Made by a program: the position numbers and the translations under genes. The notes beneath the pieces are model-generated. The model had not been told where the DNA came from. It did no database searches and saw nothing but the letters and a program-made list of their open reading frames with translations. DNA of 64,000 bases from Candidatus Limnocylindrales bacterium. GTDB taxonomy: Bacteria > Chloroflexota > Limnocylindria > Limnocylindrales > CSP1-4. The stretch lies in NCBI GenBank assembly GCA_049967415.1, contig JBMFSS010000007.1, positions 6,629-70,628 on the forward strand, given 5' to 3'. Shown piece by piece: positions 2,312-31,068 of this stretch (positions within the stretch are counted from its first letter, which is position 1; each line of letters begins with the position of its first letter).

Positions 2312-3394
2312 GTGACCGAAGCAGGCCGCTCCGGGGCCGCGGGGTGGGTACGCTCCTCCGCGCTTCTGCCCCTCCGGTTCTTCGTCGGTTTCACCTTCGT
2401 CTTCGCCGGGGTCGACAAGCTCGCCCTCGATCCGGGCTTCCTTGACCTCTCGTCGCGCACCAGCATCCTGGTGCAGCTCCAGGGCTACGCGCACACGTCA
2501 CCGCTGAGCCCGCTCATCACGGCGGTGGCGATCCCGAACGCGTGGCTGATGGGGATGCTCATCGCCGTCTCCGAGATCGCGGTGGGGCTGGGGCTCCTGT
2601 CGGGGCTCGCGTTCCGACTCGCCGCCGCCGGCGGCGCCGCGCTCTCGCTCCTCTTCTTCCTGACCGCCTCGTGGAACGTGCACCCGTACTACTTCGGGCA
2701 GGACCTGCCGTACGGGTTTGCCTTTCTGACGCTGGCGCTTGCCGGCCACGGCGACCGGTACGTCCTGGGCCCCTGGGTGGAACGACAGCTCACGCCGCAC
2801 CCCGCGCGGACGCGCCGCGCGCCGGTTCCAGCTCCGATGTCGCCGGGGCGGCGAGAGGCACTGCAGATCGGGACCCTGGCAATCGCCGCGTTCGTGCTGG
2901 CGGCCGTGGTGCGCCCGTTGCACGACCTGTTCCTGCCCGCCACGGCGTCTCCGGCGGGCGCGACCTCGGGCAGTGCGCCTTCGGTTTCGGCAGGTGCAGG
3001 CACGGGGGCCGCAGCGTCCGCAGGGGCGCCTGCCTCGAGCGGAACTGGCCGGGCCGGGCCGGCGGGCCCGCTGGCCATCGCGTCGGCTGCAGCAGTGGCG
3101 CAGGCGGGGGCCGTGGCGTTCCAGGTGCCGGTCGCGATCGGCAACGCCGCCCCGGGAGATCCGGGGATCGTGGTCTCCCTCGGCGCCGGCACGTTCGTCG
3201 CGTTCGACGCCGTCTGCACGCATGCCGGCTGCACGGTGGGTTTCGATCCGCAGTCGCAGATGCTGGTCTGCCCCTGTCACGGCGCGACATATGATCCTCG
3301 GCACAACGCGCAGCCGGTGGCAGGCCCCACGAATATCCCGCTTACGGCGCTGCCGATTTCGATCCAGTCGGGCGAGATCACGCTCCGGGCCTGA
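2312..3394 (+). CDS. DoxX-family membrane protein fused to a C-terminal Rieske [2Fe-2S] domain
   Basis: C-terminal part of the 1511..3394 ORF. N-terminal region is DoxX-like with four TM helices (LLPLRFFVGFTFVFAGVDKL...). C-terminal region has a Rieske motif (CTHAGC...17 residues...CPCHGATYD). The two are joined by a Gly/Ala/Ser-rich linker. The start was chosen at GTG 2312, just before the first TM helix; it could lie a little upstream. Confidence 0.6.
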   Translation: MTEAGRSGAAGWVRSSALLPLRFFVGFTFVFAGVDKLALDPGFLDLSSRTSILVQLQGYAHTSPLSPLITAVAIPNAWLMGMLIAVSEIAVGLGLLSGLAFRLAAAGGAALSLLFFLTASWNVHPYYFGQDLPYGFAFLTLALAGHGDRYVLGPWVERQLTPHPARTRRAPVPAPMSPGRREALQIGTLAIAAFVLAAVVRPLHDLFLPATASPAGATSGSAPSVSAGAGTGAAASAGAPASSGTGRAGPAGPLAIASAAAVAQAGAVAFQVPVAIGNAAPGDPGIVVSLGAGTFVAFDAVCTHAGCTVGFDPQSQMLVCPCHGATYDPRHNAQPVAGPTNIPLTALPISIQSGEITLRA

Positions 3395-5769: not shown

Positions 5770-5833
5770 GGCCGGATCGTACGTCAGGGGCCTGCGATGC
5801 AGGCTGCGGCGCCTTCCGGTACGCTCCTGACGA

Positions 5834-6586
5834 ATGCCCCAGCTGACGTTTCACGGCGACCCCTATCAGGTGCTCGGCCTCCCCGGCGACGCGTCGAACG
5901 CGACCATCAAGCGCCGCTGGCGAGAGCTGGCCCGCGAACACCACCCGGACCGGGCGAACGATCCCGCGGAGGCCGCCCTGCTCACCAGGCAGATGGCCAG
6001 GATCAACGCCGCATACGATCTGCTGCGGGACCCGGCACGCCGCGCGCGCGTGGATGGAGCGGCCCATCCGGACCAGCCGGATGCGCACGGGCCGGCATTC
6101 CGCCCCCGGCAGGACGACGCGCCGGCCGGTCCCCCGAGGCCGCGCCCAACTCGCCCGGTGACGGCGCGCTTCGATACCACGCCGGTCTTTCACCGCCGGA
6201 ATGCGACCCTGAGACGGACGAAGATCCCGCTCGACGGGCTCCGGCCGGTGCCGACCCGCGAGCGGCGCGCCAGCCAGGAACCGCTCCGCTCGAGTGACCC
6301 CTGTGGGCCCATCCTGCGGCACCGTGTCCCCGCCCGTCCGCTGCGGCTTCCCTCGCTCGAGGAGGCACGCGCCACGGTCCTCGCCTTTGGCAAGTTCCAT
6401 GGCCGGACGCTGGGCGACGTGGAGCGGTCCGAGCCCACCTACATCGACTGGATCGCCCGCACGATCACCCGGGACCACGGCCTGGTCGTGCGGGCGCGGG
6501 TCATCCGTGACGACATGGATGCGCGCGGGGTGCGCCGGGAGGTGCGCACGACGACGCCCGGGTTCGGGAGCTCGAGCCCGGACTGA
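5834..6586 (+). CDS. J-domain (DnaJ-like) protein with a DUF3820-like C-terminal domain
   Basis: N-terminal [30 protein letters not shown] with HPD tripeptide (J domain). C-terminal [25 protein letters not shown] resembles the DUF3820 motif. Pro/Arg-rich linker between. Confidence 0.75.
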
Positions 6587-6959
6587 GACACGGACGCGGG
6601 CCACCCGGCCTCGAGACGCGCGGGCTGGCGGCCGCCGACCCGCGCGTCCGGCCCGTCGGCCGGAGTGCCTGTCACTCGACTCGTTGCCGCGCGGCCCGCG
6701 TCCTCTGCTGCGGTGGAGCCCACCGCCCCTGAAGTGCGAGGGCAGCGACGCCATGCGGCCCGGTGGTCGACGCCTCGGGTATGTTCCGGACCCCTGGATC
6801 GGCGGCCATGTCGATCTTCGGCGCCGGGGCTCGCTCCCGCCATGGGCCTTGGGTACCGCCGCGGGGGCACGAAGGAGCGTGGCGGCCGTGCACCACGTCA
6901 CGCGGAAGGCCACCTGCAGGCGGTTCGCGTCCGCCAGGCAGCGTGCTACAGTCGCCGCG

Positions 6960-8639
6960 ATGGACGAGGGCTGGCGCGCCGCCCGGGAGCGCTGGGAGCG
7001 CGAGCGACTCGATCCCGAGATCCGGCGCGTCCCCGAGCGCGGGCCGCGGTTCCGCACCCTCGGCGAGATCCCGGTGCGCGGCCTGTACACGCCGCTGGAC
7101 CTGGAGGGGCGTGACCCGCTGGAGACCGTGGGGTTCCCCGGGTGGCCACCGTTCACCCGAGGTATCCACGCCAGCGGCTACCGCGGTCGGCTCTGGACGA
7201 TGCGCATGTTCGCCGGCTTTGGCTCGGCGGAAGACACCAACGCCCGCTTCCATGAGCTGCTGGCCGCCGGGCAGACCGGGCTCTCGATCGCCTATGACAT
7301 GCCCACGCTGTACGGCTACGACACCGACGATCCGCAGGCGGAAGGCGAGTTCGGCACCTGCGGCGTGGCGGTCAGCTCGCTGGCGGACATGGAGATTCTG
7401 CTGGAGGGGATCCCGCTCGACCGGATCTCCACCTCCATGACCATCAACGCGCCGGCCGCGCCGATCTGGGCCATGTACATCGCGGCGGCCGAGAAGCGTG
7501 GCTATCCGCGGGGCAGCCTCGAAGGTACGCTCCAGAACGACATCCTGAAGGAGTACATCGCCCAGAAGGAGTTCCTCTTCCCCATCGAGCCCTCCCTGCG
7601 ACTGGTCACCGACACGATCGAGTTCGGCACCCGGGAGCTGCCCCGCTGGAACACCGTTTCGATCAGCGGCTACCACATCCGGGAGGCGGGGGCCACGGCG
7701 GTCCAGGAGCTCGCCTTCACCATCGCCGACGGGATCACGTACGTCGAGCGGGCGCTCGAGCGGGGCTTGCAGGTGGACGAGTTCGCGCCCCGCCTCTCGT
7801 TCTTCTTCAACGCCCATTCCGACTTCTTCGAAGAGATTGCCAAGTACCGTGCCGCTCGCCGCATCTGGTATCGGCTGGTGACCGAACGCTGGCACGCCGC
7901 CCACGAACGATCCGCCTGGCTGCGCTTCCACGCCCAGACGGCAGGCGCCTCGCTCACCGCCCAGCAGCCACTCAACAACCTGACCCGGGTCGCGGTCCAG
8001 GCGCTGTCGGCGGTCCTCGGGGGCGCGCAGTCACTGCACACCGATGCGTACGACGAGGCCTGGGCCGTGCCGTCGGCGGAGGCCGCGCTGCTGGCGCTCC
8101 GCCAGCAGCAGGTGCTGGCGGCGGAGACGGGCGCGACCAGCACCGTGGACCCGCTGGGGGGCTCCTGGTACGTCGAGTGGCTGACCGACGAGGTGGAACG
8201 CCAGGCCTTGCGCTACCTCGGCGAGATCGATGCCTTGGGCGGGATGCCATCGGCCATCGATGCGGGCTTCCCCCAGCGTGAGATCGCGGATGCCGCATAT
8301 CGGTACCAGCGGGCCCTCGACGCGGGGGAGCGGGAGGTGGTCGGTGTCAACGCGCATGCCGACCCGGACGAGCAACTGGCGATCCCACTGCTGGAGGTGA
8401 GCGAGGAGAGCCGGCGGCGCCATCTCGCGCGCCTCGAACGGGTCCGCCGGACCCGCGATCCCGTCGCGGTGGCGGCCGCGCTGGATCACCTGCGCGACAT
8501 GGCCGCCCGTCCCGGCTCGAGCGCGACCAACGTGATGCCGGCCCTGCTCGAGTGCGCCACCGCCTACGCGACCCTGGGCGAGATGTGCGGCGTGCTGCGC
8601 ACATGCTTTGGCGAGTATCGCGAGGGCGTCGCGGTCTGA
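6960..8639 (+). CDS. B12-dependent acyl-CoA mutase large (catalytic TIM-barrel) subunit, lacking a fused B12-binding domain; specificity residues look isobutyryl-CoA-mutase-like
   Basis: [18 protein letters not shown]...[30 protein letters not shown]...SIAYDMPT...[17 protein letters not shown]...[13 protein letters not shown]...: methylmalonyl-CoA mutase family substrate-binding domain. The ATG at 6960 was chosen over the 222-aa N-terminal extension in the ORF track, which is low-complexity and overlaps the reading context of the upstream gene. No C-terminal DxHxxG B12 domain. Confidence 0.9.
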
Positions 8640-8690: not shown

Positions 8691-9416
8691 TCACATCCCG
8701 GGATCGGGCGGCAGCCTCCGCAGGAGTTGTTCCGCGAACCGCTGGGCCGACTGCAGCGACCCACCGGCCCAGTCCACCGGGAGACGCGCCAAATCAGGAC
8801 CCAGGGCATCGAACGCGCGGCCGCCCAGCATGATGGCCGGCGGATTGGGCATCGCCCGCAGGGCGGCCACTGCGGCACGCACCGTCTCGAAGCGGTCGGC
8901 GAGGGCGGCGCTGAGCGCCACCAGCCGGGCCTGCTCCCGCGCGACATAGCGGACCAGGTCGTCCACCGGCACACTCTGGCCGAGGTACGCGACCGACCAG
9001 CCGCTCTCGCGCAGGACGTGCTCGAGCAGGATCAGCCCGATGGCATGCTCCTCGCCTTCGGCCGCGGCGAGTACCGCCAGGGGGCCGATCCGGTCGCTCA
9101 CGGCAACCTCCGGCGCCAGGTCCTCCAGCGCCCGCGCCAGCGCCTGGCTCGCCCGGTGCTCCTCGCTGATGGTCCAGCGGCCGCCGCGCCACCCGTCGCC
9201 GACCTCGCGCATCGCGTCGCGGACCAGGGAGTCGTACACCACGGCGCGGGAGGGCCCCTGCAGCGCGACCCGGAGCGCCCAGGTGACGAGGTCCTGGTCG
9301 CCCTCCACCAGCAGGCCGGCCAGCACCTCAGGCGTCACCACGTCGGGCGCGACCGTGCCGGCCAGTCGTGGATCAACCGGCGGCAGGGACGGGACCGACT
9401 TGTCTTCGTCACTCAC
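8691..9416 (-). CDS. stand-alone cobalamin (B12)-binding domain protein: helical cap plus Rossmann B12-binding domain, no DNA-binding domain
   Basis: Cap region has a W-x9-E-H motif (GWRGGRWTISEEHRAS). Rossmann region has the His-on B12 ligand motif ExHxxG (EGEEHAIGLILL) followed by GWSVAYLGQSVPVDDLV. Convergent with the mutase gene. Confidence 0.7.
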   Translation of the reverse strand: MSDEDKSVPSLPPVDPRLAGTVAPDVVTPEVLAGLLVEGDQDLVTWALRVALQGPSRAVVYDSLVRDAMREVGDGWRGGRWTISEEHRASQALARALEDLAPEVAVSDRIGPLAVLAAAEGEEHAIGLILLEHVLRESGWSVAYLGQSVPVDDLVRYVAREQARLVALSAALADRFETVRAAVAALRAMPNPPAIMLGGRAFDALGPDLARLPVDWAGGSLQSAQRFAEQLLRRLPPDPGM

Positions 9417-9488
9417 GGCCGCACGATAGCACGGCCTGCCGGGGGGCAGAGGTTGCCCTGAGCGTAGACTGCGGGGTGGGAGGTCCGC

Positions 9489-9824
9489 ATGGGCGCGCCG
9501 GGAGAACTGGGTACCAGGATCGAGCTGGCGGCCTCGTCAATCGAGGGGGTCGAGCGCCGGGCCGAGGTCGGTGGCTTCCGCTACGCGCTGGCTGGTGTCG
9601 ACTTCGCTCTGGTATCCGGCGCCCGTTGCGCGTTTCGGCTCCGGCCCGAGCTGGCCGAGGCGGCACTGGGCACGCCCGACGTCCGGCCGAGCGCCGTCGG
9701 CGAGGGGTGGGTCGAGCTGGCGCCTGCCGAATTCGACCGGTTTGCCCTGGACCGGGCCACGAGCTGGTTCGCGGCTGCCGCTCGTTATGCGGCGGAGACC
9801 GGGCCGGGGCGCAGGCTCCACTGA
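9489..9824 (+). CDS. small conserved protein, TfoX/Sxy N-terminal-domain-like
   Basis: 111-aa ORF ...FRYALAGVDFALVSGARCAFRLRPELAEAALGTPDVRPSAVGEGWVELAP... matches the TfoX-N pattern (FGGxaf..nG.mf..v.d..l.lR...e....al....rp....G..mkGWv.v). Assignment is from memory of the family pattern. Confidence 0.4.
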   Translation: MGAPGELGTRIELAASSIEGVERRAEVGGFRYALAGVDFALVSGARCAFRLRPELAEAALGTPDVRPSAVGEGWVELAPAEFDRFALDRATSWFAAAARYAAETGPGRRLH

Positions 9825-9827
9825 ATG

Positions 9828-11087
9828 TCATGAAGACGGGCCTCGCTGGTGGCAACGTTGGGTTGTCAAAGCAACCAGCACCAGGAGGCCCACGTGATGT
9901 TGTACGCCGGATTGGACCTGTCGCGCCAGAGGGTGGATGTGCACGTGCTCGATGCGTCGGGTCGGACCGTGGAGGTGACCGCCGTGCACCCCGATACCGA
10001 CGGCCTTCGGTCATTGGTCGATCGGATCGGTCGATACGGTGAGCCGGTGGAGGCGGCCATCGAGTCGATGAACGGCGCGCGCTTCGTGCACGACCAGCTC
10101 GAGTTCGCCGGCTGGGATGTGGCGATCGCCGATGCCCTGCGGGCCAAGGGCTTGGCGCCATTGGTGGCCAAGACGGACAAGATCGATGCCTGGGTGCTCG
10201 CCGAGCTTGCTCGCCGGGAGCTGGTGCCCGCCATCTGGCTGCCCGACCCCGAGGTGCGCGCGGAACGGGAGCGGGCCCGCTTCCGGCTGCACCTGGTGCG
10301 CCACCGGACCGCCCTGAAGAACCGGACCCACGCGATCCTCATCGCCTTCGGCTACCCGGTCCCGGTGTCCGATCTCTTCGGGACCGCCGGACGCGAACTG
10401 CTCGGTCGGCTCGCGATCCCCGAGCCCTGGGCCACCACCCTCGCCACGGGCCTGCGCTTCGTCGACGAGCTGGACGCCGAGATCGATCGCTGCGAGGCCG
10501 AGCTGCGGCGCATGGGGGCCGACCACCCCTACGTCCCCTTGCTCATGACGGTCCCCGGGGTTGCCTGGGTGCTGGGCTACACCATCGCCGCCGAGATCGG
10601 CGACATCGGGCGCTTCGCCTCACCCAAGAAGCTCACCGGGTACAGCGGCCTCTGCCCGATCGTGCGCCAGTCGGGCGGCCGCGATGACCGGGGACCCCTC
10701 GCCAAGAACGGCCCCAAGTACCTGCGCTGGGCGTTGATCGAGGCCGCCACCCACGCCGCTCGCCATCCCGCCTACCGGGACCACTACGAGCGCACCGCCC
10801 GCCGCCTCGGTCGCCAGCGCGGCTCCAAGGTCGCCCGGGTCGAGCTTGCCCGCGAGCTCGCCGGCGCGATCTGGCACATGCTCACCAAGAACGAACCGTT
10901 CCGTTCCGGCAGGCCCCCCGTGGGCCCTCTGGTCGCGTGACGACCCTGTACTGAGATGGGCCGCCGGAGCATCCGATCCAACCTGATCCTCCCTCAAGGA
11001 GGCGATAAAGAGATGAGCGCAGCTCCACCCAACGCAGCGATGCGCAACCAGAGTCGTCAGCACTTGACGGCCGGCCCGTCTTCATAA
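9828..11087 (+). mobile_element. IS110-family insertion sequence (about 1.26 kb) with 15-bp sub-terminal inverted repeats
   Basis: Left end TCATGAAGACGGGCC (9828-9842) and right end GGCCCGTCTTCATAA (11073-11087) are reverse complements with one mismatch. They bracket a single IS110-type transposase gene. The right end shows a local GC drop (ataaagag). Confidence 0.7.
9896..10940 (+). CDS. IS110 family transposase
   Basis: AGGAGG ribosome-binding site then ATG. MLYAGLDLSRQRVDVHVLD (DEDD N-terminal domain) ... KTDKIDAWVLAELAR ... C-terminal LMTVPGVAWVLGYTIAAEIGDIGRF...KLTGYSGLCPIVRQSGG (IS116/IS110/IS902-family C-terminal domain). Confidence 0.9.
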
Positions 11088-11163
11088 AGAGGGCGCGCCG
11101 CAGGCAGTGCCGGGGCACCGGAGCGGGCACCGGCGCCCCGCCGGGCGCGGCAGGGGAGGAAGC

Positions 11164-11655
11164 ATGTACGTTGATGCGCTCTCGTTCCTGGAAGACGAAC
11201 GCGAAGCGTGGGCTCCGTTCGAGGCGCTTGGCGCGCTCTCCGACGCGGACCTGGAGCGCACCACGGCCGAAGACGGACCGGCGCATGGCTGGACCGGTCG
11301 CGACCTGGTGGCGCACCTCGTCGCCTGGCAGGAGCTGGCGCAGCAGTCCGCACGTGAGCTCGCGCTCGGGGACTCCAGCCCCACGATTGAGCGGATCGAG
11401 GCCGAACGGGCGTCCGGTGGCGATGATGTGCGGAGCGCGGCCATCCAGGCTGAGTGGCGGAGCCTGCCCCTGGACGAGGTACGGCACCGGCTGGCCACGG
11501 TGGCCGGCGAACTGCGCGGGTACCTGACGGTGGTGCCGGAGACGCGCTGGGTGAAGAACCCGAAGCGTCTCGCGTTCTTCCTCGAGTGCACGCTGGACCA
11601 TTACCCCGAGCACCAGCCGGAGCTGGAGGCGATCCTGGCGGCCGCCCGCGGCTGA
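11164..11655 (+). CDS. DinB/ClbS-like four-helix-bundle family protein
   Basis: GGGGAGGA ribosome-binding site then ATG. MYVDALSFLEDEREAWAPFEAL...GWTGRDLVAHLVAWQE... C-terminal DHYPEHQPELEAIL is typical of the DinB/DUF1706 (ClbS/DfsB) bundle. Confidence 0.55.
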   Translation: MYVDALSFLEDEREAWAPFEALGALSDADLERTTAEDGPAHGWTGRDLVAHLVAWQELAQQSARELALGDSSPTIERIEAERASGGDDVRSAAIQAEWRSLPLDEVRHRLATVAGELRGYLTVVPETRWVKNPKRLAFFLECTLDHYPEHQPELEAILAAARG

Positions 11656-11729: not shown

Positions 11730-12077
11730 TCAGGAAGGCTGGGGGACCGGCGCGTACTTCGCGAGTCCGAACGCCTGCTCCAGCTGATCAGCGGGCCGGA
11801 AGCCCACCACGCCCACCGGGGTCTCGCCGGGGCGGAAGAACGCGATGGTGGGGATGCTCATGATCCCGAACGTCTGGGACACCATGGGGTTGGCATCCAC
11901 GTCGAGCTTGACGAAGTCGACGGCGTCCCCGTACTTGGCGGCCAGCTTCTCGATCTCCGGGGCGACCAGCTTGCAGGGGCCGCACCACGCCGCCCAGAAG
12001 TCGACGAGGACCGGCTTGTCGTTGTTCAGCACGGCCTGCTCGAAGTCGGCGTCCGTGACGTGCTTGATGTTGGACAT
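11730..12077 (-). CDS. trxA: thioredoxin
   Basis: MSNIKHVTDADFEQAVLNNDKPVLVDFWAAWCGPCKLVAPEIEKLAAKYGDAVDFVKLDVDANPMVSQTFGIMSIPTIAFF: WCGPC active site. AAAGGA ribosome-binding site upstream of the ATG at 12077. Confidence 0.95.
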   Translation of the reverse strand: MSNIKHVTDADFEQAVLNNDKPVLVDFWAAWCGPCKLVAPEIEKLAAKYGDAVDFVKLDVDANPMVSQTFGIMSIPTIAFFRPGETPVGVVGFRPADQLEQAFGLAKYAPVPQPS

Positions 12078-12151
12078 GACCTGGATGGATCCTTTCCCCC
12101 CGCCGTGCGGGGCCTCCACGCCCGGCCTGCTCGGCCGGGGCCGTTGTGCCC

Positions 12152-12448
12152 TCAGCGGGCGAACGTCTGGATGAGCCGGTACGCGTCCAGGACCCGAGGG
12201 TCCGTGAGCCGGTAGTACACGGTGTTGCCCTGCCGCCGCGTGGACACCAGGCCCGCGCCGCGCAGCACTGCGAGGTGCTGGCTCATGTTCGGCACCTGAC
12301 ACCCGATCTCGTGTGAGAGCTCCGAGACCGAACGTTCGCCAGCTGCCAGCACCTCGAGGACACACAGCCGCTTCGCGTCGGCAAGGGCCCGCATGACCGC
12401 GGTATACCGCTGCAGGTCCTGGTCAGCCGATAGCGTCAGCGTGTTCAT
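12152..12448 (-). CDS. ArsR/SmtB family metalloregulatory transcriptional repressor
   Basis: MNTLTLSADQDLQRYTAVMRALADAKRLCVLEVLAAGERSVSELSHEIGCQVPNMSQHLAVLRGAGLV: winged helix-turn-helix of the ArsR family. Start chosen at the ATG at 12448 rather than the 36-aa low-complexity extension. Confidence 0.8.
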   Translation of the reverse strand: MNTLTLSADQDLQRYTAVMRALADAKRLCVLEVLAAGERSVSELSHEIGCQVPNMSQHLAVLRGAGLVSTRRQGNTVYYRLTDPRVLDAYRLIQTFAR

Positions 12449-12466
12449 CTCCGCTAGGATGTCACA

Positions 12467-12486
12467 ACTTGCGCAAATGCGCAAGT
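12467..12486. promoter_or_regulatory. putative ArsR-type operator: 8-bp perfect inverted repeat ACTTGCGC-aaat-GCGCAAGT
   Basis: Seen directly at 19-38 bp upstream of the arsR-like start codon, in a local low-GC promoter patch. Confidence 0.45.
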
Positions 12487-12524
12487 ACCAACCGGGACGG
12501 CGGCGCGTCCGGCCGAAGGACGCC

Positions 12525-13400
12525 CTAGTCGAGGGCCGCCGCCCGGCCCGGCGCAATGATCAGGCGCCCTGCTCGGTTCCGCCCGGTGAGCCACGGTCCG
12601 AGCACAAAGCGACCGGCCAGGTAGCAGGCAAAGCTCAAGGATGTCACGAAGACACTCACCGGCACGTTGGTCAGCAGCGAAAGCAGGATGCCCCCGAGCA
12701 CGGAGAAGAGGGCGATTCCCACGCTCCACGCAGTGGCGCGCCCGGGTGCTGCAGCCAGTTGCTCGGCCGTGGCACCGGGCGTGATCAGGAGGGCCAGGAT
12801 GAGGAGGACGCCCACCACCTGGACCGCCTCTGCGACTGCGGCCGCCATGATCACCAGGAAGACCACCGCAAGTGCCCCCACCGGGACCCCGCGCGCTTCG
12901 GCCACTTCCGGGTCGACCGTGGCGAACGTGAGCGGTCGGTAGACCAGCGCCAGTGCGACCAGCGTCACGATGCCCATCGCGATCAGGAGCACCACGTCCC
13001 CGGCGCTCACTCCGGTGATGGTGCCGAACAGGATCGCGAATGCCTGCGTCCCGAAGCCCGAGTAGAGCGAGAGGAACAGGACCCCCAAGCCGAGGCCGAA
13101 CGCCATCACGACGCCCACCACGGAGTCGCGCTCCCGCACCCGAACCCCCAGGGCGCCGATGAAGAGGGCCGTGACTAGGGTTGCGGTGAGCAGCCCAAGT
13201 ACCGGGGAGACGCCCACCAGGAGCGCCCCGGCCGACCCGGTGAAGCCCAGCTCGGCGAGGGCGTGCACGGCAAAGGCCATGTTCCGCGCCACCACGAAGC
13301 GGCTCACGATGCCGGAGACGATGGCGATCACCGCGCCTGCCTCGATGGCATGCTGGACAAAGCTGTAACCCAGCAGGTGCAGCACCTGGTCGAACATCAC
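12525..13400 (-). CDS. znuB: metal (Zn/Mn) ABC transporter permease
   Basis: 291-aa protein with 8-9 TM helices, ABC-3 family (TroC/ZnuB-like), in an operon with an ATPase and a substrate-binding protein. Confidence 0.85.
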   Translation of the reverse strand: MMFDQVLHLLGYSFVQHAIEAGAVIAIVSGIVSRFVVARNMAFAVHALAELGFTGSAGALLVGVSPVLGLLTATLVTALFIGALGVRVRERDSVVGVVMAFGLGLGVLFLSLYSGFGTQAFAILFGTITGVSAGDVVLLIAMGIVTLVALALVYRPLTFATVDPEVAEARGVPVGALAVVFLVIMAAAVAEAVQVVGVLLILALLITPGATAEQLAAAPGRATAWSVGIALFSVLGGILLSLLTNVPVSVFVTSLSFACYLAGRFVLGPWLTGRNRAGRLIIAPGRAAALD

Positions 13401-14242
13401 CGCTCCTTCGTCTTGTCAGGCGCGACGTACTCGGCGATCGGCAGGTGGTGCGGGTCCTCCATCTCGAACCCCGAGTCCAGCGTCTCGCCGACCACCAGGA
13501 TCCGTCCGCGTACCCGGACCACGTCCACCTGGGACCCATAGAGATCCGACAGCCGTTCGGAGGAGAGCACCTCGTCCGGCGTGCCGGCCGCCCAGCGCCC
13601 GTTGACCACGAAGAGCACCCGGTCGACAAATGGGAGGACCGGGTTGATGTCGTGGGTCACGAAGAGGACGGTTCGCTGGGTCTGCCGATGCCAGCCGCCG
13701 ATCAGTTCCGTGATCTCGCGCTGGTGGTGCGGATCCAGGTGGGCCAGCGGCTCGTCGCACAGCAGGAGCTGCGGGTCCCCGACCAGGGCCTGGGCGATGC
13801 GCAGGCGCTGCTGCTCGCCGCCCGACAGCCGCCCGATGGGGGCGTCGGCGTAGGCGCCCGACCCGACCGATGCGATTGCCTCTGCCACGCGCCTCCGGTG
13901 CTCGCCACCCGGGCGGCCGATCCCCCAGCGGTGGCCGTCGATTCCCAGCCCCACCAGGTCGCGGCCGCGGAGTGGCAGATCGCGCTCGAAGAGCTGCCCC
14001 TGCGGGACGTAGCCGATTCCGGGGTTGCCCCGCCGCGGTGGTCCGCCCAGGACTTCCACCGAGCCCGAAGTGAGCGGGCTCAGGCCCAGCACCACTCGCA
14101 GAAGCGAAGTCTTGCCCGATCCGTTCGGGCCAAGGATGGCCACGAAGTTTCCCGAGGCGCACGCGAGGGACAGGTCACGCCAGACCTCGCGGCCGTGGAA
14201 GGAGAGGGTGGCGTGCTCGAAACGGAGAATGGGTTCCGCCAT
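13397..14242 (-). CDS. znuC: metal ABC transporter ATP-binding protein
   Basis: Walker A GPNGSGKTSL, ABC signature LSGGEQQR, Walker B LLLCDEP. 4-bp overlap with znuB. Confidence 0.9.
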   Translation of the reverse strand: MAEPILRFEHATLSFHGREVWRDLSLACASGNFVAILGPNGSGKTSLLRVVLGLSPLTSGSVEVLGGPPRRGNPGIGYVPQGQLFERDLPLRGRDLVGLGIDGHRWGIGRPGGEHRRRVAEAIASVGSGAYADAPIGRLSGGEQQRLRIAQALVGDPQLLLCDEPLAHLDPHHQREITELIGGWHRQTQRTVLFVTHDINPVLPFVDRVLFVVNGRWAAGTPDEVLSSERLSDLYGSQVDVVRVRGRILVVGETLDSGFEMEDPHHLPIAEYVAPDKTKER

Positions 14243-26048: not shown

Positions 26049-26459
26049 ATGACCGAACGCCCCATCAAGGTCCTCATCGCGAAGCCCGGGCTCGACGGCC
26101 ACGACCGGGGCGCGAAAGTGCTGGCGCGCGGGCTGCGGGACGAAGGATTCGAGGTGGTCTACACCGGGCTTCGGCAGACGCCCGAGATGATCGCATCGGC
26201 CGCGCTCCAGGAGGACGTGGACGTGGTGGGACTGTCGATCCTCTCCGGAGCCCACATGACGCTGCTCCCCCGGGTCTGCCGGGCGCTGCGCGAGGAGGGA
26301 CTTGGCGACGTGCTGGTGACGGCGGGCGGGATCATCCCGGACGACGATATCCCCGCCCTGCGAGAGGCTGGCGTGGACCGTGTGTTCGGTCCCGGCACCA
26401 CCATCGGCGAGGTCGCGGAGTACCTGCGCGCCAACGTCCGTCCGCGTGACGGGGCCTGA
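26049..26459 (+). CDS. acyl-CoA mutase B12-binding small subunit
   Basis: [40 protein letters not shown]: DxHxxG His-on cobalamin motif and Rossmann fold. About 135 aa; an alternative ATG at 26013 adds 12 aa. Confidence 0.85.
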
Positions 26460-26562: not shown

Positions 26563-27648
26563 ATGTCCCGCGGCGTGGCACTGGCGGAGCGCGCGCGGTC
26601 GGGCGATCGGCGAAGCCTGGCGCGCCTGCTGACCGAGATCGAGAACCGGACGCGCGTTGCCGAGACCGCGCTGCGCTTCCTCTACCCGGCCGCCGGACAG
26701 GCGCAGCTGGTCGGGATCACGGGGGCGCCGGGTGCCGGCAAGTCGACCCTGGTGGCGGCCCTGGTGCGTGCCGTTCGCGCGTCGGGACGCGCGGCGGCCG
26801 TTCTCGCCATCGACCCATCCAGCCCCATCACCGGCGGGGCCATCCTGGGCGACCGGATCCGCATGCAGGAGCATGCCGGTGACCCGAACGTCTTCATCCG
26901 CTCCATGGCCTCTCGCGGGCATGCCGGCGGTCTTGCCGCGGCCGCGGCGGATGCCGCCGCGGCGCTCGACGCGGCCGGCTTCGACATGGTCTTCCTGGAG
27001 ACCGTGGGGGCCGGGCAGAGCGAGGTGGAGGTGGCCTCCATTGCGGACACGACTCTGGTGGTGGAAGCGCCTGAGATGGGCGACGAAGTGCAGGCGATCA
27101 AAGCGGGCCTGCTCGAAGTGGCCGACATCGTGGTGGTCACCAAGGGCGACCGGCCCGGGGCCCAGCGGACGGCTGCCCAGCTGCGGGCGATGCTGACGAT
27201 CGGGGCGGATGGCGACGCGACGGCGCGGGCACGTGCAGCCGCGTCCGGCCGGCGGCAGCCCAAGCGGCCGCAGGTGCTGCTGGTCACCGCGCCCACCGGA
27301 GACGGGATTCCGGAGCTCGTGGCGGCCCTCGAGCGGCGGGCCCCCGAGCGTGACCTGGGGGCATTCGAGATGGCACGGCTGGCGCGGGCCGCGGTGCAGC
27401 TCGACACCGTGGTGGCCGAGCGGCTGCACGCGCAGCTGCACGCCCCGGCCCGGGCCGCGGCGTTCCAGGAGACCGTGCATGCGATCGCTCATCACGAGCT
27501 GGATCCCTACGCGGCGGCGGATCGGGTGCTCTCGTGGCTGGAACGGGAGCCGGGCGCCCAGGAAGGGCGGGAGCCGAACCGCGTGGCGGGCGAGCGGCGG
27601 CGGCCCGTGCCCGGGGGCAACCGGCGGGAAAGCACCACGGAGGGCTGA
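26563..27648 (+). CDS. meaB: methylmalonyl-CoA mutase-associated GTPase (MeaB/ArgK family)
   Basis: GGAGG ribosome-binding site then ATG. P-loop GITGAPGAGKST, LETVGAGQSE (switch), VTKGD (NKxD-like). The track ORF starts upstream inside the B12-subunit gene. Confidence 0.9.
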   Translation: MSRGVALAERARSGDRRSLARLLTEIENRTRVAETALRFLYPAAGQAQLVGITGAPGAGKSTLVAALVRAVRASGRAAAVLAIDPSSPITGGAILGDRIRMQEHAGDPNVFIRSMASRGHAGGLAAAAADAAAALDAAGFDMVFLETVGAGQSEVEVASIADTTLVVEAPEMGDEVQAIKAGLLEVADIVVVTKGDRPGAQRTAAQLRAMLTIGADGDATARARAAASGRRQPKRPQVLLVTAPTGDGIPELVAALERRAPERDLGAFEMARLARAAVQLDTVVAERLHAQLHAPARAAAFQETVHAIAHHELDPYAAADRVLSWLEREPGAQEGREPNRVAGERRRPVPGGNRRESTTEG

Positions 27649-28559: not shown

Positions 28560-28574
28560 CGGCGGGAGCGGCCG

Positions 28575-29747
28575 GTGGCGGACGGCGCGCTCAGCGGAGA
28601 GGAGCGGCTGCTCCGGGACACGGTGCGCGACTTCGCGGACCGGGAGCTGGCGCCTGGCGCCGCCGACCGCGACGAGCAGGAGCACTATGAGCGGCGGCTC
28701 TTTGACGCGCTGGCCGGGCTGGGGCTGACGGGCGCTCCTTTTCCCGCGTCGATCGGCGGCGGCGGCCTGGCCTATCGCGCCTGGGTCCTGGTCATGGAAG
28801 AGCTGGGTGCGGTGGACATGGCGCTGGCCGTGTCGCTCAGCGTCCACGTTCTCTCGCAGGCCCCCGTGGTCCGCTGGGGCACGCCAGAGCAGCAGTCGCG
28901 CTGGTTGGCGCCCATGCTGCGCGGCGAGCGGATGGGCGCGTTTGCGCTGACCGAACCGGGCGCCGGATCCGACGCGGCCGCGATCCGGCTGCGGGCGAGC
29001 CGGATCGGGCTAGCCGACGCGCCGGAGGCGTATCGCCTGGACGGCACCAAGATCTGGATCAGCAACGCGCCGGAGGCTGAGCACTACCTGGTTTTTGCGA
29101 CCCTCGACCCGGATGCCGGACCTCGGGCGATCACGGCCTTCCTGGTGGAGAAGGGCACGCCGGGGTTCGAGTTCGGGCGCAAGGAGCGGAAGCTCGGGCT
29201 CCGGGCGAACCCGGCCTCCGAGCTGGTCTTTCGGGCCGCCCGGGTGCCGGTGGAGAACCGCCTCGGCCGCGAGGGGGACGGGTACCGGATCGCACTGTCC
29301 GCGCTCGGGGAGGGGCGAATCTCGATCGCGGCCGCGTGCACTGGGCTCGCGCGTGCGGCCCTGGAGTCGGCCGCCCGATACTGTGCCGAGCGGCAGGCCT
29401 TCGGCGGGCCACTCACGGGGCAGGAAGGGGTCCGGTTCATGCTCGCTGAGATGCAGCAGCAGGTGGCCGCCGCCCGGGCCCTCACGCGCGCGGCAGCCGA
29501 GGCCCGGGACCGCGGCGAGCCGATCGCCGAGGCCTCCTCGCTTGCCAAATGGACCGCGTCCGACGCCGCGATGCGCGTGGCCAGCGACGCGGTGCAGCTT
29601 TTTGGTGCGGCCGGGTACAGCCGCGAGAACCCGGTGGAGCGCTACCTGCGGGACGCGAAGGGCGCGCAGATCTACGAGGGCACCAACCAGGTGCACCGGC
29701 TGATCGTTGCCCAGCAGCTGCTCCGGGGACTGGGGCTGCCGGGGTGA
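28575..29747 (+). CDS. acyl-CoA dehydrogenase (short/branched-chain type)
   Basis: ACAD motifs: ALTEPGAGSD, GTKIWISNA, C-terminal QLFGAAGYSRENPVERYLRDAKGAQIYEGTNQV. Confidence 0.9.
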   Translation: MADGALSGEERLLRDTVRDFADRELAPGAADRDEQEHYERRLFDALAGLGLTGAPFPASIGGGGLAYRAWVLVMEELGAVDMALAVSLSVHVLSQAPVVRWGTPEQQSRWLAPMLRGERMGAFALTEPGAGSDAAAIRLRASRIGLADAPEAYRLDGTKIWISNAPEAEHYLVFATLDPDAGPRAITAFLVEKGTPGFEFGRKERKLGLRANPASELVFRAARVPVENRLGREGDGYRIALSALGEGRISIAAACTGLARAALESAARYCAERQAFGGPLTGQEGVRFMLAEMQQQVAAARALTRAAAEARDRGEPIAEASSLAKWTASDAAMRVASDAVQLFGAAGYSRENPVERYLRDAKGAQIYEGTNQVHRLIVAQQLLRGLGLPG

Positions 29748-29814
29748 CCAGCGTGCCGCGCGCGCTGGCAAAGGACGGCGGCAGCCGCTGACGTCCAAGC
29801 GCTAGCATGCCGGG

Positions 29815-31068
29815 ATGGAAAGCCAGCCGCTTGCGCCGGATGGGCCCTCCGGCCGCGTCTACCTCGTCTCGGCCATGCGCACGCCGATCGGGAAGTTCGC
29901 CGGCAGTCTCGCCGACGTCCCCGCCACGGTCCTTGGCGGCATCGCGATCCGGGCTGCCGTGGAGCGGGCGGGCGTGCCCCCCGAGGCGGTCGAGGAGGTG
30001 CTGATGGGGCAGGTGCTGCAGGCGGGGGCGGGGCAGGCCCCCGCGCGCCAGGCGGCCCTGAACGGCGGGCTGCCGGTGGGTGCCAGCGCCACGACCATCA
30101 ACCGGGTGTGTGGGTCCGGTCTGAAGTCGATCATGCTCGCCGCGGCCGAGATCCGCGCGGGGGACGCCGAGGTCGTCGTGGCCGGTGGCATGGAGAGCAT
30201 GAACCAGGGACCGTATCTCCTCCGGAAGGCGCGCTTCGGCTACCGGCTGGGCGGCGGCGAGCTGGTGGATGCGACCGTTTCGGACGGCCTGTGGTGCTCC
30301 ATCGAGGGGTGCCACATGGGGACCCTGGCCGAGCGGGTGGCCGGCCGTTCCGGGGTCAGCCGGGCGGACCAGGACCGGTTCGCGCTGGAGAGCCACCGGA
30401 AGGCGATCGCTGCCATCGATGCGGGCCGGTTCGCGGACGAGATCGTGCCGGTCTCGATCCGGCGCGGCCGCGAGGAGACGCTCTTCGCCACCGACGAAGG
30501 CCCTCGTCGGGATACCACGCCCGAAGCGCTGGCCCGGCTCCGGCCCGCGTTCGAGTTGCCGACCGGCGAGGATGCGCCGCCGGGCGGGGTGGGGACGGTC
30601 ACCGCCGGCAACGCGCCCGGAATCACCGATGGCGCGGCGGCCACGGTGGTGGCCAGCGAGCGGGCGGTGGAGCGGTACGGGCTGGCGCCGCTCGCGCGGA
30701 TCCTGGGGTACGCGGAGGCCGACGTGGAGCCGAAGTGGCTCTTCCTGGCCCCGATTGCCGGCGTGCGCCGCCTCCTGGAGCGCGTGCGGCTGCCGCTGGA
30801 CGCGTTCGACCTTCTGGAGATCAACGAGGCGTTTGCCGCGCAGGTGCTGGCGGACGGGCGCGAGCTGGGGTTCGACTGGTCGAGGGTCAACGTGAACGGT
30901 GGGGCGATCGCGCTGGGGCATCCGATCGGAGCGAGCGGGGCGCGGATAGTGGCCACGCTGCTGCACGAACTGGCGCGCCGCGAAGGGCGTTACGGGCTGG
31001 CGACGCTCTGCCTGGGAGGCGGCGGCTCGGTGGCCATGGCGTTCGAGCGAACGTTCGAGCGGAACTGA
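29815..31068 (+). CDS. acetyl-CoA C-acetyltransferase (thiolase II)
   Basis: NRVCGSGLKSI (active Cys), GNAPGITDGAAA, NVNGGAIALGHPIGASGARI, CLGGGGSVAMAFE. Confidence 0.9.
   Translation: MESQPLAPDGPSGRVYLVSAMRTPIGKFAGSLADVPATVLGGIAIRAAVERAGVPPEAVEEVLMGQVLQAGAGQAPARQAALNGGLPVGASATTINRVCGSGLKSIMLAAAEIRAGDAEVVVAGGMESMNQGPYLLRKARFGYRLGGGELVDATVSDGLWCSIEGCHMGTLAERVAGRSGVSRADQDRFALESHRKAIAAIDAGRFADEIVPVSIRRGREETLFATDEGPRRDTTPEALARLRPAFELPTGEDAPPGGVGTVTAGNAPGITDGAAATVVASERAVERYGLAPLARILGYAEADVEPKWLFLAPIAGVRRLLERVRLPLDAFDLLEINEAFAAQVLADGRELGFDWSRVNVNGGAIALGHPIGASGARIVATLLHELARREGRYGLATLCLGGGGSVAMAFERTFERN

Follow-up and report, generated by a model that had tools for sequence, protein, structure and literature searches.

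The gene at 8691-9416 on the minus strand of the window, i.e., the whole 64-kb stretch analysed here (contig JBMFSS010000007.1 of a Candidatus Limnocylindrales bacterium; G+C content, 72%), encodes a stand-alone B12-binding protein of 241 amino acids. Its motifs suggest that it is probably an adenosylcobalamin (AdoCbl)-dependent light sensor, which has no output domain of its own and acts through a protein partner. The SignatureFinder motifs for light-responsive B12 domains are GxxW, EH, GxxH, and GxxxP, and this set has been experimentally validated (PMC11796333). All four are present in the protein and are 94-100% conserved across its family. Conservation, here and below, was counted over 104 homologues that are 44-89% identical to the 241-amino-acid protein.

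Architecture and signature motifs

The open reading frame (ORF) is the maximal one at this position. An in-frame stop codon lies upstream, and 28 residues precede the cap; therefore, the gene encodes no hidden N-terminal domain. A protein that is 100% identical is recorded at NCBI from a Candidatus Limnocylindrales metagenome-assembled genome (MAG). Pfam assigns residues 32-98 to the cap family B12-binding_2 (PF02607; 35 bits, cutoff 23 bits) and residues 114-208 to the Rossmann family B12-binding (PF02310; 57.6 bits, cutoff 32.1), and no further Pfam domain was found in the protein. Searches of Pfam and NCBIfam gave no helix-turn-helix family in it, including the MerR-type winged helix. The AlphaFold2 model, which was built on 105 sequences and has a predicted local distance difference test (pLDDT) value of 94, contains four helices in the cap and, after them, a Rossmann fold of five strands. 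The last Rossmann helix of the model spans residues 221-234, and just 7 residues remain to the C-terminus at 241. A preliminary description of this DNA had proposed a stand-alone helical cap plus Rossmann domain without a DNA-binding or catalytic domain, and Pfam, the maximal ORF, and the model all confirm this. The W-x9-E-H and ExHxxG motifs that it had named were located at W76/E86/H87 and E122/H124/G127, respectively, in alignment with residues of TtCarH. The features of the gene are as follows:

8691-9416, minus strand: gene of the 241-amino-acid stand-alone B12-binding protein (ORF and translation, GTG start)
9369-9386, minus strand: family-specific N-terminal motif L11-P-P-V-D-P16, before the cap
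9120-9332, minus strand: four-helix cap, residues 29-99 (helices 29-38, 41-51, 57-77, and 83-99 in the AlphaFold2 model; Pfam B12-binding_2)
9156-9191, minus strand: W76-x9-E86-H87 (WRGGRWTISEEH) with G73-xx-W76, the predicted cap over 5'-deoxyadenosyl
9036-9053, minus strand: E122-x-H124-xx-G127, with the predicted lower axial His (His-on/base-off)
8967-8981, minus strand: G146-xxx-P150 loop (G146-Q-S-V-P150)
8715-9080, minus strand: Rossmann B12-binding subdomain, residues 113-234 (PF02310; AlphaFold2 strands 113-118, 141-146, 165-169, and 194-198)

G73 and W76: These residues form the GxxW motif (G73-D-G-W76) and are 99% and 100% conserved, respectively. The residue equivalent to W76 in TtCarH is W131.

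E86 and H87: Located at +10 and +11 from W76, these residues complete W-x9-EH and are each retained in 103 of the 104 homologues. They are equivalent to E141 and H142 in TtCarH. Composition-preserving shuffling of the 241-amino-acid protein produced W-x9-EH in 0.4% of the shuffles; because of this low rate and the near-total conservation in homologues, we consider the motif to be more than chance. According to reviews, Wx9EH sits over the adenosyl group and distinguishes AdoCbl photoreceptors from domains of the MetH type (PMC8156234; PMC9304148), and one of them describes it as absent from MetH (PMC8156234). The W...EH columns are kept in CtMerR and in both photocobilins and read F...DL in the corrinoid carrier 4jgi.

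E122, H124, and G127: The stretch reads E122-E-H124-A-I-G127. H124 is invariant and also closes the GxxH motif (G121-E-E-H124), in which G121 is 97% conserved and H124 100%. In TtCarH, the residues equivalent to E122 and H124 are E175 and H177. The extended pattern, ExHxxG-x41-S169-A-A171-x26-G198-G199, is present as well; its spacing, though not the Ala at its T/V position, fits the classic D/ExHxxG-x41-SxT/V-x22-27-GG.

G146 and P150: P150 is invariant, and G146 is 94% conserved. P150 is equivalent to P203 in TtCarH, as is G139 to G192. The GxxxP loop is an element of the dimer interface in CtMerR and CarH (for the motif, see PMC11796333).

L11 to P16: Each position of LPPVDP is 90-96% conserved. 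The region is non-helical in the model, with a mean pLDDT of about 80 over residues 11-20, and lies outside the part that matches CarH. The motif could serve as a docking peptide for a partner.

Relatives and distribution of the family

In phmmer searches against PDB, the highest scores were obtained for the photocobilins SasPcob (68 bits) and AbDPcob (59 bits), followed by the MerR-type proteins, namely the CtMerR B12 domain and TtCarH (52 bits each). Methionine synthase (at most 40 bits), corrinoid carriers (at most 37 bits), and AerR (7te2; 25.5 bits) scored lower. With the family profile, the photoreceptors reached 81, 80, and 80 bits (up to 81 for CtMerR and 80 for photocobilins). The Desulfitobacterium carrier 4jgi had 71 bits, CarH 63, MetH 58, and AerR 34.6, a spread that is modest. 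With the single sequence as with the profile, AerR was the weakest significant match and the lowest of those containing a cap (25-35 bits). The best Foldseek matches were CarH, a photocobilin, and CtMerR, with MetH and MtmC (3ezx) close after because the fold is common to all of them. Among NCBIfam models, the best match was the CarH equivalog NF052513 with 76.1 bits against a cutoff of 400 bits; it covers model positions 73-252 of 274, which is the B12-binding part. Corrinoid models matched weakly (TIGR02370 with 40.7 bits against a cutoff of 215.3; others with 27-39 bits against 310-450). Overall similarity favours the photoreceptors without settling the matter, and the motifs are the real discriminator.

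CarH/LitR: TtCarH (PDB 5c8d) shares the cap-plus-Rossmann architecture, Wx9EH, the His of ExHxxG, and GxxxP with the window protein, at about 29-30% identity in a structural alignment. CarH/LitR proteins have a MerR DNA-binding domain, whereas the window protein has none and is therefore no repressor by itself.

Photocobilins and CtMerR: SasPcob (8j2w/8j2x), AbDPcob (8j2y), and CtMerR (8jbs) are the closest solved sequences and have all signature motifs in common with the window protein. The light response of the photocobilins and of the CtMerR B12 domain was shown experimentally (PMC10979010, PMC11796333). In photocobilins, a biliverdin-binding globin-like domain follows at the C-terminus, and some have enzyme domains too, whereas the window protein ends after the Rossmann subdomain; the alignment with 8j2x stops at residue 198 of 341. 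No globin-like gene was found among the neighbours, which encode a YjbR-like alpha/beta fold and a DinB-like domain. CtMerR differs from the window protein by its DNA-binding domain.

AerR/PpaA: These proteins are likewise stand-alone cap-plus-Rossmann proteins and have a partner transcription factor, which makes them a functional analogy; for AerR, the partner is CrtJ (PMC9144470). They are distant from the window protein in sequence, and the two families occur in different phyla. Neither a CrtJ/PpsR gene nor a photosynthesis gene cluster was found in the 64-kb window. By analogy, the window protein may combine sensing like that of CarH with an output logic like that of AerR.

On sequence grounds, the window protein is a member of none of CarH/LitR, photocobilins, AerR/PpaA, and corrinoid methyl carriers, and it fits the signature of light-responsive B12 domains. 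The CarH-type reading of the preliminary description thus gains support from NCBIfam, from the phmmer, profile, and Foldseek relatives, and from the four-motif signature. Its label "AerR-like" is apt for the stand-alone architecture and misleading for the sequence, given the scores above.

The family comprises about 100 clusters of stand-alone homologues with 218-284 amino acids and 44-89% identity, all of which come from uncultured Chloroflexota/Limnocylindrales-type MAGs. A scan of GTDB species representatives gave 32 loci, again all from Chloroflexota/Limnocylindrales MAGs. When 1.84 billion representative proteins were searched with the family profile, 46 representatives fell below 1e-30, and the family is thus small and distinct. 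Outside the family, the search reached thousands of related cap-plus-Rossmann modules, which form a plateau. In the nearest outgroups, the same module is fused to HTH_3, MEDS plus GGDEF, or HisKA/HATPase outputs, or stands alone, which looks like the spectrum of a sensor module. Within it, the family is an output-less CarH-type module with its own N-terminal motif, confined to Limnocylindrales-like Chloroflexota.

Fusion proteins were considered as a clue to the partner and discarded. The three candidates, P0128 (709 amino acids), P0123 (351 amino acids), and P0139, consist of a truncated B12 domain plus unmatched sequence; frameshifts read through in GC-rich long-read assemblies are their likeliest origin. 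Many homologues (P0002, P0006, and others) carry the automatic JGI names "methanogenic corrinoid protein MtbC1" or "MerR family light-induced transcriptional regulator". These names are unfit because there is no methanogen or methyltransferase context and no MerR domain.

The sigma-linked sister clade

Six loci of a sister clade were compared. L039, L040, and L042 are three of the 32 loci from the GTDB scan, L059 is the locus of P0106, and L063 and L064 were reached via sigma homologues and picked solely for their long contigs. In all six, the B12-domain gene lies immediately downstream of a gene for an extracytoplasmic function (ECF) sigma factor, in the same order:

L039, 2136-3664: sigma gene and B12-domain gene
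L040, 2343-3817: sigma gene and B12-domain gene
L042, 5218-6700: sigma gene and B12-domain gene
L059, 840-2223: sigma gene and B12-domain gene
L063, 6001-7493: sigma gene and B12-domain gene
L064, 6001-7466: sigma gene and B12-domain gene

Both genes are on one strand and are considered to be co-transcribed and translationally coupled; in L042 and L063, the stop codon of the sigma gene overlaps the start codon of the B12-domain gene. A conventional anti-sigma gene was not found at the sister-clade loci. The sigma-linked B12 proteins of L063 and L064 have 234-237 amino acids. In a neighbour-joining tree, the clade with the window protein has the sigma-linked proteins as its sister group, and the latter retain Wx9EH, ExHxxG, and GxxxP.

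The B12-domain genes of L039, L040, and L042 are convergent with an amine-oxidase/DUF1365/CMAS operon. The L063 and L064 loci adjoin CMAS, amine-oxidase, and SRPBCC genes, and L064 and L065 additionally have DUF1365 and heliorhodopsin genes. No mutase gene was found near the sister-clade genes. The amine-oxidase, DUF1365, and CMAS genes match UfaD, UfaO, and UfaM, the proteins of furan-fatty-acid synthesis in Rhodobacter sphaeroides (PMC7380195). Loss of the anti-sigma factor ChrR raises the levels of furan fatty acids in Rhodobacter (PMC7380195). ChrR is part of the RpoE-ChrR system, which is responsive to singlet oxygen. As in Sigma-E/ChrR regulons, the sister-clade genes occupy the anti-sigma position beside UfaD/UfaO/UfaM homologues. 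ChrR, however, is a zinc/cupin anti-sigma factor without a B12 domain, unlike the sister-clade proteins. A B12 domain acting as an anti-sigma factor is not described in the literature searched, a statement that holds for that literature alone.

The heliorhodopsin gene of L064 (7495-8310, minus strand), which is also present in L065, is convergent with the sigma-linked B12-domain gene at a distance of 29 bp; the CMAS-DUF1365-amine-oxidase operon comes next. A single locus thus codes for two different light-related proteins. Genes for short-chain dehydrogenases/reductases also occur near the sigma/B12 pairs.

With 1236 proteins at E <=1e-20, the family of these sigma factors is large. The sigma genes of the sister-clade loci have a housekeeping-like TATACT -10 element. 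After a low-complexity linker, a C-terminal extension is conserved in the sigma factors of L039 (about 2690-2951), L040 (about 2890-3104), L042 (about 5800-5998), and L063 (about 6560-6783). It reads approximately GL(I/A/L)R(C/F)AIR(F/L)xSIIEQA, with a tail end of approximately TAP(F/V)DA, and is absent from the shorter sigma factors of L059 and L064. About 50-100 nt before the sigma start, L039, L040, L042, and L063 share the block CCGATATACTCGA...GATACGGCGGC...CTGCCGCC, which contains the TATACT -10-like hexamer and then a GGCGGC/GCCGCC inverted repeat; the block is possibly a regulated leader. On the minus strand of two loci, L063 (about 10870-10900) and L064 (about 12085-12110), the start codon of the UfaD-like amine-oxidase gene is closely preceded by a perfect inverted repeat, GTTCG-CTT-CGAAC, for which the surroundings of the B12-domain gene in the window offer no meaningful counterpart. 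A sigma-dependent promoter shared between the window and the sister regulon was considered and rejected: the -10 element of the sigma genes is housekeeping-like, and near the window locus nothing meaningfully matches GTTCGCTTCGAAC, a palindrome found ahead of the UfaD-like genes.

Proposed mechanism, gene neighbourhood, and alternatives

What domain content, motifs, conservation, relatedness, and gene contexts lead us to infer is AdoCbl binding, photolysis, and a partner, whose identity and even existence belong to the inference. In the dark, AdoCbl would be held base-off/His-on with His124 as the lower ligand, and Trp76, Glu86, and His87 of the four-helix bundle would cap the 5'-deoxyadenosyl group. 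Near-UV to green light would cleave the Co-C bond, the cap would rearrange, and the oligomeric state and/or the grip on a partner protein would then change. As the protein has no output domain of its own, the output would be protein-protein as in AerR-CrtJ and not DNA binding. The partner is most likely a transcription factor. A transcription factor or sigma factor is favoured because the sister clade sits behind an ECF sigma gene in the usual anti-sigma position, near photo-oxidative-stress genes, and such a partner with a photo-oxidative-stress output is the best-supported model for the family. That the partner is specifically an ECF sigma factor is a tentative proposal. In the window genome, candidate partners would be an unlinked orthologue of the sister-clade sigma factor or the products of the YjbR-like and DinB-like gene pair, which is divergent from the B12-domain gene.

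Several observations weigh against a light sensor of this kind or against a sigma factor as its partner. In the SxT/V element, the third position is Ala (A171) in the window protein and Ser in most of the family. The Trp of TtCarH is followed by His132, whereas the window protein has Arg77, which rules out a bis-His light state like that of TtCarH; in CtMerR and the photocobilins, too, the residue after the Trp is not His. The dimer salt bridge R176-D201 of TtCarH corresponds to E123/S148 in the window protein, so CarH-like tetramerisation cannot be assumed. Carotenoid, photolyase, rhodopsin, and sigma-factor genes are absent from the 64-kb window, as is CrtJ/PpsR, and no partner regulator of the kind for which the preliminary description had suggested a search was identified there. 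The neighbour in most of the main clade is a mutase gene, as detailed below. The window protein is 41-43% identical to the sigma-linked proteins and lies outside their clade. No sigma homologue is encoded in the 64 kb around its gene, which accordingly does not stand in the position of an anti-sigma gene.

A more specific proposal for the whole family, to which the window protein belongs, is a role as anti-sigma factor or sigma co-regulator that depends on B12 and is gated by light. In the dark, the ECF sigma factor would be sequestered by the module with its bound AdoCbl, and photolysis would free it to induce photo-oxidative-stress defences, e.g., furan fatty acids; in the clade of the window protein, the sigma gene would have become unlinked. 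The gene order of the sister clade speaks for this proposal, which we regard as rather unlikely. If true, B12 photoreceptors would have an output mode not known before, and anti-sigma factors would gain a new class.

The following genes surround the B12-domain gene or bear on its reading:

6960-8639, plus strand: large subunit of an acyl-CoA mutase, without B12 domain (PF01642, 695 bits; TIGR00641, 707 bits; ATG at 6960)
9423-9431, minus strand: extended -10-like element TGCTATCGT (TGCTAnnnT), 6 nt before the GTG of the B12-domain gene
9489-9824, plus strand: 111-amino-acid protein with a YjbR/TfoX_N-like fold, candidate partner, divergent from the B12-domain gene (AlphaFold2 pLDDT, 87.6)
9825-11106: IS110-family element between the 111-amino-acid and DinB-like genes (transposase ORF 9849-10940, plus strand; NF033542, 236 bits)
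11107-11655, plus strand: DinB/MDMPI_N-like protein, the other member of the divergent pair (Pfam MDMPI_N, 30.4 bits)
26049-26459, plus strand: canonical 136-amino-acid small B12 subunit of the split mutase, cap-less (PF02310 alone, 93.7 bits)
26617-27648, plus strand: MeaB G-protein chaperone (PF03308, 273 bits; the coordinates run from the MeaB domain to the stop codon, and the gene start is not fixed)

Promoter: In nine related loci, TGCTAnnnT recurs 6-7 nt ahead of the start codon, which supports the assigned start and implies a leaderless mRNA; leaderless mRNAs seem to be common in this lineage. The same TGCTAnnnT occurs at about 6944-6952 (plus strand), 7 nt before the ATG of the mutase gene, and is seen in relatives (L002-L010). 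No conserved operator was found in the divergent intergenic region, in which the extended -10 is the sole conserved element.

Divergent pair: Searches of Pfam, NCBIfam, and PDB profiles with the 111-amino-acid protein gave nothing significant. The best Foldseek match was E. coli YjbR (2fki; TM score 0.66, E 5.6e-3), followed by other YjbR/TfoX_N-type structures, and this fold search weakly identifies the model as YjbR/TfoX_N-like. The NCBI name of the YjbR family as DNA-binding rests on structural grounds. We consider the protein a weak candidate for the partner. In most loci of the main clade, the small gene is the immediate neighbour of the B12-domain gene or the one after that, and a DinB-like gene lies upstream of the B12-domain gene in 26 of the 29 main-clade species representatives. 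The pair of a DinB-like and a small protein (111-141 amino acids) was also found in other contigs examined. Its order varies, the 111-amino-acid gene being first in the subclade of the window and the DinB-like gene in more distant members. In the relatives L008-L010, which have no insertion sequence (IS) here, the two genes are 65-80 bp apart, and the IS110 insertion may uncouple their co-transcription. A truncation of a full-length CarH by IS110 was ruled out: about 100 homologues are equally long without a MerR domain, and IS-free relatives show the identical gene start and promoter.

Wider surroundings: Genes for a thioredoxin, an ArsR-family regulator, and an ABC-3/ZnuA-type metal transporter follow at 11751-12077, 12152-12556, and 12525-14242 (minus strand). 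Their order is kept in relatives (in L008, with a FUR-ZnuA-ABC cluster), and the neighbourhood is one of redox and metal homeostasis. The gene contexts in the window and the related loci are those of aerobic-heterotroph housekeeping. No Rfam family and no tRNA was found in the window, and thus no cobalamin riboswitch.

A light-independent role is the next alternative, in which an AerR/PpaA-like co-regulator would report the form of cobalamin or the redox state to a transcription factor. The stand-alone architecture is common with AerR (PMC9144470), and a report on Rhodospirillum rubrum describes a PpaA/AerR-like protein that responds to the intracellular redox state (PMC10734443). The conserved neighbours (DinB-like, thioredoxin, ArsR) are redox-flavoured as well. 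However, AerR is the most distant significant relative, the adenosyl-specific Wx9EH cap is strongly conserved, and the sister clade lies beside photo-oxidative-stress and heliorhodopsin genes, which makes a dark co-regulator rather improbable.

The mutase gene next to the B12-domain gene raises another alternative, namely that the protein is an escort, buffer, or store of B12 for this enzyme, which would hold AdoCbl, perhaps shielded from light, and exchange it with the B12 subunit of the mutase. As stated in the preliminary description, the two genes are convergent; their stop codons are 51 bp apart, and no terminator or RNA structure beyond chance was found between them. In 24 of the 29 main-clade species representatives, a mutase gene converges on the B12-domain gene, often with overlapping 3' ends, and the motifs predict AdoCbl, which is the cofactor of the mutase. 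The large-subunit gene encodes just the substrate-binding barrel. It reads RMFAGF where methylmalonyl-CoA mutase has Tyr, which we take as a suggestion of an isobutyryl-CoA-mutase-like specificity.

The window protein was also considered as the missing B12 subunit of this split mutase and ruled out, as the canonical 136-amino-acid subunit and MeaB are encoded at 26.0-27.6 kb, about 17 kb from the large-subunit gene. The 136-amino-acid subunit is 81-93% identical to the 134-amino-acid subunit beside MeaB in relatives. Small subunits of mutases consist of the Rossmann part alone, have about 130-140 amino acids, and are usually encoded beside MeaB; the window protein differs from them by its cap. 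Genes for an acyl-CoA dehydrogenase and a thiolase follow MeaB at 28560-31068 (plus strand).

This mutase B12 subunit and MeaB also argue against an escort role, and convergent genes are not co-transcribed. The region is syntenic throughout among relatives, with DnaJ, Kdo/DUF4032, thioredoxin, and ArsR in the same order, and the adjacency of the mutase therefore carries little weight. Five of the 29 main-clade genomes (L015, L023, L025, L029, and L035), and likewise L007, have the B12-domain gene with its upstream neighbours and no mutase, and the sister clade has no mutase nearby. We know of no cobalamin chaperone with a cap-plus-Rossmann module. The earlier proposal of a chaperone or store for the neighbouring mutase is thus weakened, and we consider it quite unlikely.

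A role as corrinoid methyl carrier of a methyltransferase system (MtaC/MtbC-like), as implied by the JGI name "MtbC1" on many homologues, is close to refuted: the two-domain fold is the same, Foldseek also returns MtmC 3ezx and MetH, and NCBIfam gives weak matches of 27-41 bits, but these scores lie far under the family cutoffs of 215-450 bits, no corrinoid-dependent or cognate methyltransferase gene was found in the window or the related loci, and the closest carrier, 4jgi, is without W...EH. The preliminary description had named corrinoid carriers as best matches, together with a nearby methyltransferase, as a finding that would speak against a photoreceptor; the best matches are photoreceptors, and the window holds no corrinoid-dependent methyltransferase. 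Nothing was found to support its view that some corrinoid methyltransferase proteins share the cap motif: 4jgi has F...DL, and a review describes the motif as absent from MetH (PMC8156234).

B12-based photoreception is a young field. To our knowledge, the B12 photoreceptors characterised so far either include a DNA-binding or enzyme output, as in CarH, CtMerR, and the photocobilins, or belong to the distant AerR type. The family described here would add a conserved output-less CarH-type module in the widespread uncultured Limnocylindrales of soil and freshwater. For annotation, it follows that the automatic name "methanogenic corrinoid protein MtbC1" is wrong for many members. As a compact green-light protein-protein switch, the module may also be of optogenetic use, and the sister clade offers a testable route to a new kind of signalling, which would lead from light via B12 to a sigma factor.

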